64,000 nt of DNA from Escherichia phage vB_EcoM_OE5505. The notes beneath the pieces are model-generated. The model made no database searches. It was not told where the DNA came from and saw only the letters and a list, made by a program, of their open reading frames with translations. Within the stretch, counting starts at the first letter, position 1, and each line of letters begins with the position of its first letter. The position numbers were made by a program, and so were the translations under genes. The stretch lies in sequence record NC_054926.1; one strand, 5' to 3'. Below are positions 6,185-39,546 of this stretch, piece by piece.

Positions 6185-6676
6185 TTATGCATAGAGAGCA
6201 TTGCTATAGTGTTTAATCCAACTTTCAGGAATGACTTTGTATGTTCCTAAAAATACCGCGTTGTATAACTTAACGCCATCTTCTACCCATTGATCAGTAA
6301 TGTATGCACACATAGCGCGAGTACGGTTAACAACACCTTCCTCACCTTCAGTAAATTCAAACTCATAAGGAGCAACGAACTTGATAGCTTGACCAAGTTT
6401 CCACTTAAAGTCTACACCTACATGCGAAGTATCAATCGTTTCAATTCCTTTAGCGGGAACAGCTTTCAAAAACGCAGGCTCAAGAAATTTCCATCGAACA
6501 TAACCAAACTGAGGTTTAGACATTCCATCTTTAGGAATGATACGCACTTTTACTTCAGAATCTTCATCTTTAACACCATGTTTAAGCTGAATGCTTACGA
6601 CTTCAACCAATTTTCCTGCTGCCTTAGAACGGGATTTATCAGATACACGAGCAATTTCGCCGATATTAATATTCAT
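6185..6676 (-). CDS. hypothetical protein (163 aa); shares C-terminal module with 6750-7253 product; T4 motB-region
   Basis: ORF; C-terminal ...ITDQWVEDGVKLYNAV...VIP similar to neighbour. Confidence 0.55.
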   Translation of the reverse strand: MNINIGEIARVSDKSRSKAAGKLVEVVSIQLKHGVKDEDSEVKVRIIPKDGMSKPQFGYVRWKFLEPAFLKAVPAKGIETIDTSHVGVDFKWKLGQAIKFVAPYEFEFTEGEEGVVNRTRAMCAYITDQWVEDGVKLYNAVFLGTYKVIPESWIKHYSNALYA

Positions 6677-6720: not shown

Positions 6721-6750
6721 ATTATACTCTGATCCCAAGAGTTTGTAAAC
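6721..6750 (-). promoter_or_regulatory. T4-type early promoter
   Basis: minus-strand GTTTAC (6745-6750) and TATAAT (6721-6726), 18-bp spacer. Confidence 0.5.
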
Positions 6751-7253
6751 TAGCTTACACGAACATTAATCACTGCGCTGCGAGGAACGACAGAATACTC
6801 TCCAGCATGAACTACATTAAGAAGTTCAACGCCATCTTCAATCCACTGGTCAGTTACCCAACCGCCGACCGGATTCGCGAATGGACGACGAATGTAAACT
6901 GCCTTACACAACAAATCAGTCGGGTCTTCAATTTTTTCAACTGGTGCCACATACATAGAAACTAAATCCATATCAATATGGGATTTTTCCTGTTCTTCTT
7001 TTTCAATTTCTGTCAATAGACTAAAATCTTTTTCATAAATAATAAGCGATGACACCATTCCATAATAGTTTCTAATTTCAATATACATCATGCCGATAAG
7101 AATTCCGCTATTAACACTAATAACAGTAAAAGGATATCCGCCAGTTAAAGCAAGAAGTTCACAAAACTTATTATGAGCTGTATTAGACAGTACCGGAAAA
7201 TTCTTAATTTCATCAAATTTTTTCAATTGATAAACAGCATTATTTTTAATCAT
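6750..7253 (-). CDS. hypothetical protein (167 aa); paralogous C-terminal module to 6185-6676 product
   Basis: ORF; ...VTDQWIEDGVELLNVV...VVP. Confidence 0.55.
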   Translation of the reverse strand: MIKNNAVYQLKKFDEIKNFPVLSNTAHNKFCELLALTGGYPFTVISVNSGILIGMMYIEIRNYYGMVSSLIIYEKDFSLLTEIEKEEQEKSHIDMDLVSMYVAPVEKIEDPTDLLCKAVYIRRPFANPVGGWVTDQWIEDGVELLNVVHAGEYSVVPRSAVINVRVS

Positions 7254-7262
7254 AATTTTCTC

Positions 7263-7819
7263 TTTAATCTAAGGTAATAAAGCCTTTTAATTCGGCATGC
7301 GATTTGCGGAACATTACTTGATGTCCGCCAATGATAACTTGGTCATCTGGTACTTCGTATACAGCAAGATAAAATCCTTTCGAAGCTAATTCTTCACGCT
7401 CTTCTCGTGTGAACCATCTCATCATATCATATTCGCTAGCGAAAGCAAAATGATAAAGAGCTATAAACCCATCTCATCATATCATATTCGCTAGCGAAAG
7501 CAAAATGATAAAGAGCTATAAACCATCCTGGAATATGATATTCTACTCCAACATAATCTTTCTTGAACTTAGTATTAATTACTATATTAGCGTTTTTAAC
7601 TAATAGTTTATCTTCGTGTGGTAAAGGAATTCTTTTATTATTATCGCTATGATGCATAAAATTAGGTCTGTCATAACCTACGTGTAATAGCCACTCTTCG
7701 CTCCATGAATCTATTATACTCCTGTACGGCGTTATTTGAACACAAAGATTTCGACGTATTGTTATAGCATCTTCATAATCAAGAATACTAAACGATGATT
7801 CAACACGATAAATTTTCAT
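7263..7819 (-). pseudogene. small early gene disrupted by a 55-bp tandem duplication (and apparently a further 1-bp frame change); intact N-terminal part 7436-7819
   Basis: ORF from ATG at 7819 (RBS AGGA) terminates prematurely at 7436 after the duplication; a protein-like frame continues to a stop at 7263. Confidence 0.45.
7415..7524. repeat. perfect direct tandem duplication, 2 x 55 bp
   Basis: 7415-7469 identical to 7470-7524 (catctcatcatatcatattcgctagcgaaagcaaaatgataaagagctataaacc). Confidence 0.9.
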
Positions 7820-7844
7820 TTTATTATCCTCAGTAGCTATGGTG

Positions 7845-7876
7845 TTATAATACCACAACTAACCGAGGAAGTAAAC
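7845..7876 (-). promoter_or_regulatory. T4-type early promoter
   Basis: GTTTAC 7871-7876, TGGTATTATAA 7845-7855. Confidence 0.6.
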
Positions 7877-23200: not shown

Positions 23201-24043
23201 TTAATCAACTGCTATTGGATGAATAGCATTAAACTTATGAAATGCTTCTGATTTTTCTTTGCGCGAAACACACATGCGAAGAACCTTTAATGGCTCGTCT
23301 TCTTCACCCAACGATTTTCGTTTTTCAATATTAGAAGTTTTCCAACGAGCTTGCTCTGGAAACTCTCTATTGATTTGCTCAAGCGCTCTATTATGTTTAG
23401 AATTACTACGAATTGAACTGCACCCTCCAGGAGCTTGTGCTTTTCCAGATACAACCAGATATTTGAACAAGGCCAAATGCGGATAACCTTGATTAATTAA
23501 ATTGAGAAATGCATACATATCTTCGCACAAATCAATTTTTCCATACCCAATTTGTTCTGTCGTAAGTTTTCCAAGGTCATACCATGTATTCGTGAATCCA
23601 TATGAATTTTCACGATAATTACCCCAAGATGAAGTAATTTTAAAAATTGGTAGGCGAGCATGACCGTGATAATACCCACAATCCATGGCATCTTCGACGT
23701 ATTGAATCAATTCATAGAACTGTTCACGAGTCAATTGATTGACTTTATCCACACAACGACGATCATCTCTTTTTCGCATTGAACTCATACGAATAGTAGT
23801 ATCATCGTCAATCATCCAGATTCGTTGACCTGCATACATATCAGTAATTGCTTTACGAGTACCGGCAATTCCATTAACATCATCAGGAATAGTTACAATT
23901 TTAGCTTTAGACCCATAGGCATCATAATAAGCTTTTTCTTCATGTTCACGTACTACGATATGAGGTTCATAATCAGTCGGAAACATATCAAGGGCAGAAA
24001 CTGCCCCTACACGTTGATAGCTCGGAATTACGAATTGAATCAT
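23201..24043 (-). CDS. glucosyltransferase-position protein (280 aa), probably beta-glucosyl-HMC alpha-glucosyltransferase
   Basis: Occupies T4 beta-gt position but is 280 aa not 351; inference from T2/T6 biology. Confidence 0.45.
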   Translation of the reverse strand: MIQFVIPSYQRVGAVSALDMFPTDYEPHIVVREHEEKAYYDAYGSKAKIVTIPDDVNGIAGTRKAITDMYAGQRIWMIDDDTTIRMSSMRKRDDRRCVDKVNQLTREQFYELIQYVEDAMDCGYYHGHARLPIFKITSSWGNYRENSYGFTNTWYDLGKLTTEQIGYGKIDLCEDMYAFLNLINQGYPHLALFKYLVVSGKAQAPGGCSSIRSNSKHNRALEQINREFPEQARWKTSNIEKRKSLGEEDEPLKVLRMCVSRKEKSEAFHKFNAIHPIAVD

Positions 24044-24681
24044 TTAAGTGCCTTACATTTGTCAAAATGGTATCTTGTCATATTTGGCCCACGTCCTTTT
24101 AGTCCGCAATGCGGACATATTTTTTCTATCAAATTATGAGGTTTTCCTTTACGATTTTTAGACATCGTTTCTTTAATTATTTTAGCTTTTTCTACGCCAA
24201 AAATTTCTTCATAAGTTTTACCAGAATTTTCCTTGGCTCGATTTATAATTCCATATGCCTGCTCATTTTTACCATACATTGGATTACCTTCGCCTTTCAT
24301 TCTTTTAGAATGATCAGGACGCTTGATTCCACGAAAGGCATTTCCGCACTTATATCTTTCTTCTGGAGATAGTTTTTTACCGTACATTCCATTTAATTTG
24401 CCTGGAAAACTTCCTCCCCATGCTTCATTCTTTAAATTATATGAATCCGGACAATTAGCAGCATCTAAACAAGTTAAAATAATTTCTTCAACCTGTCTAA
24501 ACATTGGTCCTTCATATAATATTTCTTTATTAAAGAATTTTATTCCATATTTCTTTTTAGCATGTTTCCAAACTACACCCGAACCATCATAATTCGGGTT
24601 GTGACCATCATGACTTCCTATATACCACTTTTTAGTTTTAGGATGTTTATACTTATAAACATGTGGCACATTTACTTCCAT
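24040..24681 (-). CDS. GIY-YIG homing endonuclease (Seg-like, 213 aa) with NUMOD-like repeats and C-terminal zinc finger
   Basis: KWYIGS...YDGSG GIY-YIG motifs; repeated GNPMYGK / RKGKPH elements; CPHCG...C. Confidence 0.7.
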   Translation of the reverse strand: MEVNVPHVYKYKHPKTKKWYIGSHDGHNPNYDGSGVVWKHAKKKYGIKFFNKEILYEGPMFRQVEEIILTCLDAANCPDSYNLKNEAWGGSFPGKLNGMYGKKLSPEERYKCGNAFRGIKRPDHSKRMKGEGNPMYGKNEQAYGIINRAKENSGKTYEEIFGVEKAKIIKETMSKNRKGKPHNLIEKICPHCGLKGRGPNMTRYHFDKCKALK

Positions 24682-25412
24682 TTTCCAGTATAATCCTTTT
24701 TAGCAATATGAGTCTCACCGGTGTTCCACCAATGGTCAACTAAATAAAACTGATTTTCGTACACATGAAGACTTCCAACGTTCCATATAATAGAACCTGC
24801 TTTATATTGCCGCGATGGGTCGCCTGCATTCAAATCAGATACTAATTTATCTAGTACGTATTTTTGCCAAGCATAATCATTACGATAGCCTGCCCAGCAA
24901 TCATTGCTTCTCATGCTAACAACCGCATTGACTTTCTTATCACGAATCAGGTACTGTACTGTATTAGTACACATGAAATCTGACATACCATCTTTATTGT
25001 AGTCAAATTGCATGGATGGACGAGTATAAATCATGATACCACGTCGAGAATCAGGATTTTGACCAAGTTCAGCTAAACACATATCATACTGGGCATAGTT
25101 ATCTTCTGACCAAATAGCCCAACCATAATTCGAGTTAATTTCACCTTTAGAAGATGCTACCTGCTGCCAAATTTTCGGTGTTTCACCTGGAATATCTTTA
25201 ACAAACAAGCTTTTAGATTTATACCATTCAAGTTCACGCTGAATGTATTCATCATTAAGAGCGCCAAAAATAAACGGTTCATCTGCTACAAATGATGCGC
25301 CAATAATTTCAATAGTTTTAACACCAGTTTTATCAACTACGAAATCTTTTTCTTTTAATGCAAGCCCCAAATGAAGACGGATTTCTTCAACTGTCATAGA
25401 GTCACTAATCAT
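24672..25412 (-). CDS. 42: dCMP hydroxymethylase gp42 (246 aa)
   Basis: Thymidylate synthase-like fold, sequence matches T4 gp42 as recalled. Confidence 0.9.
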   Translation of the reverse strand: MISDSMTVEEIRLHLGLALKEKDFVVDKTGVKTIEIIGASFVADEPFIFGALNDEYIQRELEWYKSKSLFVKDIPGETPKIWQQVASSKGEINSNYGWAIWSEDNYAQYDMCLAELGQNPDSRRGIMIYTRPSMQFDYNKDGMSDFMCTNTVQYLIRDKKVNAVVSMRSNDCWAGYRNDYAWQKYVLDKLVSDLNAGDPSRQYKAGSIIWNVGSLHVYENQFYLVDHWWNTGETHIAKKDYTGKWK

Positions 25413-39061: not shown

Positions 39062-39331
39062 TTATCTAAGTAAGCAGTATGCTTGGAACACTTTCTCCAT
39101 CATCTTTTTAAATTCATGAATATCTATATAATGACTAGTTAAATCAGCATGATATAAAAAGTCTAAAAACTTTTCATGTGTGCTAACATATTCACTTTCA
39201 TTTAATTCAGAAACATGACTTTCCCAATATCCAACACCAGTCTTATTTGGGAAAAATGAAATTTTCATGTATTGGTCAACATAGAAAATGCCATAATTTT
39301 CAATAGTAATAGAAATATTAATAAATTTCAT
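39062..39331 (-). CDS. hypothetical protein (89 aa)
   Basis: ORF. Confidence 0.45.
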   Translation of the reverse strand: MKFINISITIENYGIFYVDQYMKISFFPNKTGVGYWESHVSELNESEYVSTHEKFLDFLYHADLTSHYIDIHEFKKMMEKVFQAYCLLR

Positions 39332-39546
39332 ACATTCATCAACTTAGCCGCTTCAAGAGCTGCATCTAGTGAATCAAATTGGTCAACATATTCAATCAAT
39401 TCGCCGTAATTGGCATATAAACCACCATTGGCTAAATTCATACTCAAGGATGAATCCGTTTCCTTCAATTTGAGTTAAACCAATGCCATTTGTATTTACT
39501 TCATATCCAGCAAGACGCAAATCGTTAATAAGAGCTTCGTTCATAA

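Follow-up and report, generated by a model that had tools for sequence, protein, structure and literature searches.

Does the perfect 55-bp tandem repeat that interrupts the motB.2 homologue of Escherichia phage vB_EcoM_OE5505 represent a mutation carried by the phage, or was it introduced when the genome sequence was put together? The window examined here, i.e., the whole 64,000-nt stretch of record NC_054926.1 that was analysed, contains no other strong tandem repeat. Positions 7415-7469 are identical to positions 7470-7524 over all 55 bp (100%) in head-to-tail arrangement, as the preliminary description of this DNA had reported and as both direct comparison and the TRF call (7414-7524, period 55, 2.0 copies, 100% matches) bear out. 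Identity extends beyond the unit by one base only, the C at 7414 matching the C at 7469, and an exact repeat of 55 bases cannot have arisen by chance. The copies meet at 7469/7470, where GCTATAAACC is joined to CATCTCATC, and the internal junction at 7466-7474, AAACCCATC, carries one extra C (AAACC-C-ATC). Each copy also contains a perfect 12-bp palindrome, UUCGCUAGCGAA (= TTCGCTAGCGAA), located at 7432-7443 and 7487-7498 and found as well in relatives with a single copy of the unit; at 7432-7443 it includes the CTA/TAG that is the premature stop in the shifted frame.

The consequence for the gene was established by translation of the minus strand from the ATG at 7819 (Table 1). The copy that comes first in the mRNA is read in frame, the second is entered one base shifted, and the reading frame proceeds through ...HFAFASEYDMMRW into ten aberrant residues and the stop, giving a product of 127 aa, in agreement with the earlier statement that the duplication shifts this frame to a stop at 7436. 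Deletion of one copy yields an uninterrupted frame of 166 aa, ending ...MMRWFTREEREELASKGFYLAVYEVPDDQVIIGGHQVMFRKSHAELKGFITLD, also given as ...ASEYDMMRWFTREEREELASKGFYLAVYEVPDDQVIIGGHQVMFRKSHAELKGFITLD, before the TAA at 7264-7266. The preliminary description had held that the frame still terminates early once a copy is removed, that a further C/G near 7380-7381 would also have to be lost, and that the intact protein would have about 179 aa. None of these three points was upheld, as one copy fewer is sufficient for the full frame, the tail is a single ORF (7264-7425) with no second lesion, and the restored size is 166 aa. Its placement of the gene's end at 7263, 10 bp before the next gene, was correct as to the 10-bp distance from the motB.1 start at 7253, while the stop codon itself occupies 7264-7266.

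Table 1. Coordinates of features at the motB.2 locus, given as positions in the window.
Feature	Position	Strand	Description
motB.2 homologue as deposited, interrupted	7264-7819	-	556 nt; 501-nt, 166-codon ORF with one copy removed
Shortened reading frame	7436-7819	-	117 native residues plus VYSSLSFCFR, then TAG 7436-7438
Orphaned 3' part of motB.2	7264-7425	-	MMRW plus 49 C-terminal residues, single frame to TAA 7264-7266
Repeat copy 1, 55 bp	7415-7469		Promoter-distal in the minus-strand mRNA, read out of frame; exact identity to 7470-7524
Repeat copy 2, 55 bp	7470-7524		Promoter-proximal in the mRNA, native frame; exact identity to 7415-7469
AACCATC, left member of 7-bp direct repeat	7412-7418		Straddles left unit boundary; members 54 bp apart in single-copy form
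AACCATC, right member of 7-bp direct repeat	7521-7527		Right unit boundary
Shine-Dalgarno GAGGAU of motB.2	7826-7831 (site 7820-7834)	-	With A-rich tract (AAUAAA), 6 nt before ATG; from sequence
Promoter-like site upstream of motB.2	7847-7875	-	TTTACT, 17-nt spacer, TATTAT, TG before -10 (extended -10); consensus match only

The identity of the gene follows from its neighbours and from the restored protein. The window is from a Tequatrovirus (T4-like), with Yersinia phage PYps5T as best match over the first 20 kb (97.3%), and the gene order cef, motB, motB.1, motB.2 homologue, dexA is that of T4. T4 motB.2 is a 501-bp hypothetical protein gene between motB.1 and dexA, a length equal to that of the restored ORF. 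The restored protein matches phrog_1106 (function unknown) over its full length (residues 1-166, E = 1e-55), and PF26820 (Phage_T4_Y00F) is marked on homologues at the motB.2 position in ten independent contigs; scanned against a Pfam copy without PF26820, the restored protein had no match. Full-length similarity and the position between motB.1 and dexA thus place the protein in the T4 MotB.2/Y00F family (PF26820; phrog_1106). A PDB sequence search with the restored protein returned nothing meaningful, i.e., no related solved structure. The two genes downstream of motB.2 (6185-6676 and 6750-7253) are MotB paralogues. In MotB the match to PF17613 spans the whole protein (E = 2e-98); in MotB.1 it is confined to the C-terminal 40 residues or so (E = 6e-8). 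The motB.1 gene encodes 167 aa here, as against a 360-bp CDS in T4.

The expression signals of the motB.2 homologue are normal. The ribosome-binding site does not vary among the 11 sequences of the alignment, and upstream of it lies the promoter-like site listed in Table 1. In T4, the RegB endoribonuclease is reported to cut only two intergenic GGAU sites, that of motB.2 among them (PMC1702504).

Comparison with relatives was undertaken with an alignment of ten of them and the window, two of the ten being strongly diverged in the 5' half. All ten (10/10) have a single copy, the 55 extra columns occur in the window only (MAFFT puts them at one of the two equivalent copies), and an intact ORF of 166-170 aa is kept throughout; alignment to related genomes, which had been proposed earlier as a check, therefore reveals homologues encoding an uninterrupted protein. 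Among the matches listed, the best of 493 matching phage records align 646-649 of 701 query nt, which corresponds to a single copy. When the 55 bp are left out, motB.2 is nucleotide-identical to the gene in four independent assemblies, namely VEc20 and three metagenome or Logan contigs (ERZ27246190, ERZ28584318 and Logan ERR9384898). A 70-nt probe across the duplication junction was uninformative, as BLAST joined its halves onto single-copy genomes, and a 34-nt probe was used instead; it found no match in 50,697 phage records, and the 55-bp duplication junction is absent from IMG/VR, JGI metagenomes and GTDB genomes as well. It had been suggested beforehand that relatives might share the 2 x 55 bp arrangement and a conserved short ORF with its end at 7436; they have neither, and the anomaly is private to this record. 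The exact products (the 127-aa, 140-aa and 53-aa ORFs, and the Dda of the same phage) have no entry in the public protein collection; since neither the shortened products nor the exact Dda is on record, no independent assembly of the same phage was found.

Substitution patterns indicate what the interruption would cost. The dN/dS of motB.2 is ~0.10 relative to T4 and ~0.15 relative to slur14; for the repeat together with the C-terminal segment it is ~0.20 relative to the most divergent homologue, and the orphaned segment at 7264-7425 is likewise conserved (dN/dS about 0.06-0.2). With an intact ORF in all relatives and dN/dS of ~0.1-0.2, motB.2 is functional and constrained by purifying selection, including in the part that would be lost.

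An exact repeat that is absent from relatives, and whose removal by one copy restores normal gene structure, directs attention to the assembly. Its length, 55, equals a default k of SPAdes and metaSPAdes, and 55 is the largest default k of these programs on short reads. Contigs built from de Bruijn graphs of circular or circularly permuted replicons start and finish with the same k-mer, and T4-type genomes are circularly permuted. The record has also been re-oriented: base 1 of the window is base 1 of T4 (NC_000866), the first 80 bases differing by a single SNP, and several related records begin within 11-12 bases of the same point. Rotation of the contig thus followed assembly, and the ends it had originally must now be somewhere within the record. 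This combination of a permuted replicon re-oriented after assembly with copies that are 100% identical over 55 bp suggests the following course of events. The circularly permuted genome would have been assembled as a "circular" contig that began and ended with the same k-mer, with k = 55. The submitter would then have rotated the contig to the T4 reference origin, and the old end and old start would have been joined with the overlap left in, creating a perfect internal 55-bp tandem repeat that by chance fell in motB.2. Joining of two graph-adjacent contigs without trimming is an alternative route that would have an equal effect. The assembler used and the failure to trim are what we infer in this account.

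Overlaps and errors of this kind have been described. Contig ends "overlapping by 55 bp" were reported from SPAdes 3.15 in meta mode (PMC8851603). According to the Phage Annotation Guide, circularisation is a common assembly artefact, and submitted genomes more and more often contain terminal repeats in internal positions and assembly errors that shift reading frames (PMC8785237). Taken together, the most probable interpretation, to which a probability of about 0.7 is assigned, is that a de Bruijn overlap of k = 55 was left untrimmed where contig ends were joined, and that the second copy is no part of the real phage genome. If so, the phage itself would have a single copy, and its 166-aa MotB.2 would be intact.

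Record quality elsewhere in the window bears on this interpretation from both directions. Comparison was made at base level for 1-19 kb and 47-63.5 kb, and by ORF length for 19-47 kb. The first 19 kb are collinear with PYps5T, the 55 bp being the only gene-breaking indel there; in 47-63.5 kb there are no gene-breaking indels, those at 50.68 and 59.5-59.8 kb leaving their ORFs intact; and 79 of the 88 PYps5T CDSs have ORFs of the same length in the window. Length mismatches to PYps5T at 18.9, 21.9, 24.0 and 44.8-45.5 kb were considered as frameshifts and set aside as mosaic or annotation differences. At 24040-24681 the window and VEc20 have one 642-nt ORF where PYps5T (24353-24995) annotates two overlapping CDSs of 354 and 333 nt; the frameshift or mis-annotation belongs to PYps5T, and the window is unaffected. 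Judged by these comparisons, the rest of the window is otherwise clean and collinear with relatives and the record is not generally sloppy, which argues against an assembly artefact at motB.2.

A second private lesion was nevertheless found among these comparisons, a 1-nt insertion at 39419-39421 (AAA on the plus strand, a short T run), where the coding strand reads GGTGGTTTATATGC, the PYps5T sequence being GGTGG-TTATATGC. A 71-aa gene at 39328-39544 on the minus strand, uninterrupted in PYps5T and VEc20, is thereby divided into two ORFs of 50 and 46 aa that overlap. A 71-base probe of the site matched 0 of 503 related phage records at >=99%, the top matches listed spanning 70 bases at 98.6%. 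Either the sequence is in error at this insertion or the gene is a second real pseudogene. The presence of two private frame-breaking changes in the same record hints at incomplete polishing, or equally at real mutations, and so discriminates only weakly between the explanations.

A finding that speaks for a natural origin is at the boundaries of the repeat. Slipped-strand tandem duplication between short direct repeats is a classical class of T4 duplication and frameshift mutations, and the unit here is bordered by AACCATC on both sides (7412-7418 and 7521-7527), that is, GATGGTT on the coding strand, derived from two xGA-TGG-TTy codon triplets. When 55-bp segments are drawn at random from the window, a comparable flanking repeat accompanies only 0.16% by a strict and 0.64% by a generous count, and this rarity favours biological slippage as the origin. 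The duplication would then be genuine and very recent, produced either by slippage on GATGGTT/AACCATC that left an imprecise +1 junction or by an event without homology, and motB.2 would be a pseudogene whose product retains 117 native residues, adds 10 aberrant ones and loses the conserved 49-residue C-terminus. That the copies have not diverged at all fits a recent event, motB.2 is small, accessory and of unknown function among the early genes, and the second frameshift at 39419-39421 makes real private lesions in accessory genes plausible.

The details of the junction fit such an event poorly. Precise slippage on the 7-bp repeat, with its 54-bp spacing, predicts an in-frame 54-bp duplication with the junction CTATAAACCATCTC, whereas the observed unit is 55 bp, with an extra C. 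Microhomology in the actual 55-bp register is only 1 bp; exactly 1 bp is found at 28% of random positions, so that a cut at an arbitrary place would account for it. Neither phage records nor IMG/VR contain the precise 54-bp product. Two JGI metagenome matches to the 54-bp junction probe were rejected as chance matches, being unrelated sequence without a tandem repeat; they came from a degenerate 24-mer matching two sibling contigs (L017, 11500-11523; L018, 4032-4055). With the 54-bp product unseen in phages and IMG/VR, and the metagenome matches unrelated, the site is not a visible slippage hotspot. A genuine duplication must also contend with a length that exactly equals a default assembler k, with a single copy in 10/10 aligned relatives and in every top match listed among ~490 phage records, and with the purifying selection on motB.2. 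It is accordingly regarded as possible but rather unlikely.

The 54-bp spacing of the 7-bp repeats could be accommodated more closely if the real event were an in-frame duplication of 54 bp (18 codons) by slippage, with the 55th base (CC to CCC) a homopolymer sequencing error; the other private +1 in a short homopolymer run, at 39419-39421, offers a parallel. Such an error would have to strike one specific run among thousands in a sequence with one other candidate error in 64 kb, the match to k = 55 would then be by chance, and the 54-bp junction has never been seen in relatives, so that this combination of events is highly improbable.

A different class of explanation treats the repeat as a functional recoding element through which full-length MotB.2 is made by ribosomal bypass or +1 frameshifting. 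In T4, gene 60 lies within a few kb and has an annotated 50-nt bypass region; in the motB.2 homologue a CGC codon stands immediately before the premature UAG, the native frame has a CGA codon 31 nt further downstream, and folding is somewhat better than in shuffled controls (z = -2.3), owing to the 12-nt palindrome present in every copy. This palindrome is shared with single-copy relatives, however, and the relatives encode the protein directly while the insert is private to this record, so that no recoding signal can have evolved. The in-frame copy has no stop codon to trigger take-off, and neither a nascent-peptide signal of the gene-60 type, nor matched take-off and landing codons with a stop after take-off, nor conservation was found. 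A gene-60-like bypass was rejected for these reasons, and the chance that the repeat serves recoding is close to nil. It is also very unlikely that the duplication is real and was selected because loss of MotB.2 helps on the propagation host, e.g., by relieved toxicity or escape from a host defence that senses MotB.2, or, alternatively, that a ribosomal hop from CGC-UAG to the CGA 31 nt downstream rescues a low level of full-length-like protein.

The choice between the two leading explanations, an assembly overlap and a genuine duplication, is therefore one of weighing coincidences. An untrimmed overlap leaves the 7-bp flank at both boundaries as pure coincidence; a natural duplication must accept, also by chance, the length of 55 and an imprecise junction. 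It is this weighing that leads to the probability given above for the overlap and to the clearly lower standing of a genuine duplication, and both gradings are matters of judgement and not of computation. The preliminary description had offered, as one of two readings, a recent duplication plus a 1-bp indel. No such indel is needed, as one copy fewer restores the gene, and the duplication itself is retained as the less probable origin. The alternative it had mentioned, that the assembly has errors here, is the better supported, given a length equal to a standard k-mer of 55 and a record that was rotated after assembly.

The repeat is thus present in the sequence, yet most probably is no real feature of the phage, and its main value is as a quality flag. 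If it is an artefact, the deposited record wrongly shows motB.2, which is a conserved early gene, in a broken state and is itself 55 bp too long, and trimming of one copy would mend both. If the duplication is real, it would amount to routine recent pseudogenisation of an accessory early gene, informative only if tied to a phenotype. If it is real and also selected, or if the protein is rescued by a hop, it would provide a first way into the function of a T4 early gene that is conserved but uncharacterised.

Three known systems offer points of comparison. T4 gene 60 resembles the present locus in having a non-coding stretch of ~50 nt that interrupts an early gene of a T4-type phage. Its 50-nt gap is annotated as a bypass region with defined signals, whereas the motB.2 insert simply repeats the coding sequence next to it, lacks a take-off/landing pair matched around an in-frame stop in its first copy, and occurs in one record only. 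Slipped-strand duplication shares with this locus the head-to-tail arrangement in a coding region, the short repeats at the boundaries and the resulting frameshift, and differs in the unit of 55 as against a spacing of 54, the extra base at the junction and the lack of recurrence in relatives. The remaining system is that of the artefactual DTRs of SPAdes (55, 77 or 127 bp), k-mer-length end overlaps of both 55 bp and 127 bp being documented in the literature. As in those cases, the motB.2 repeat is exact, direct and of a default-k length (55), the genome is of a circularly permuted type that assembles as a circle, and none of the relatives has the repeat. That model does not predict the 7-bp microhomology at the boundaries, and the motB.2 copies are adjacent and internal rather than at the ends of the record, a structure that rotation of a contig without trimming produces.
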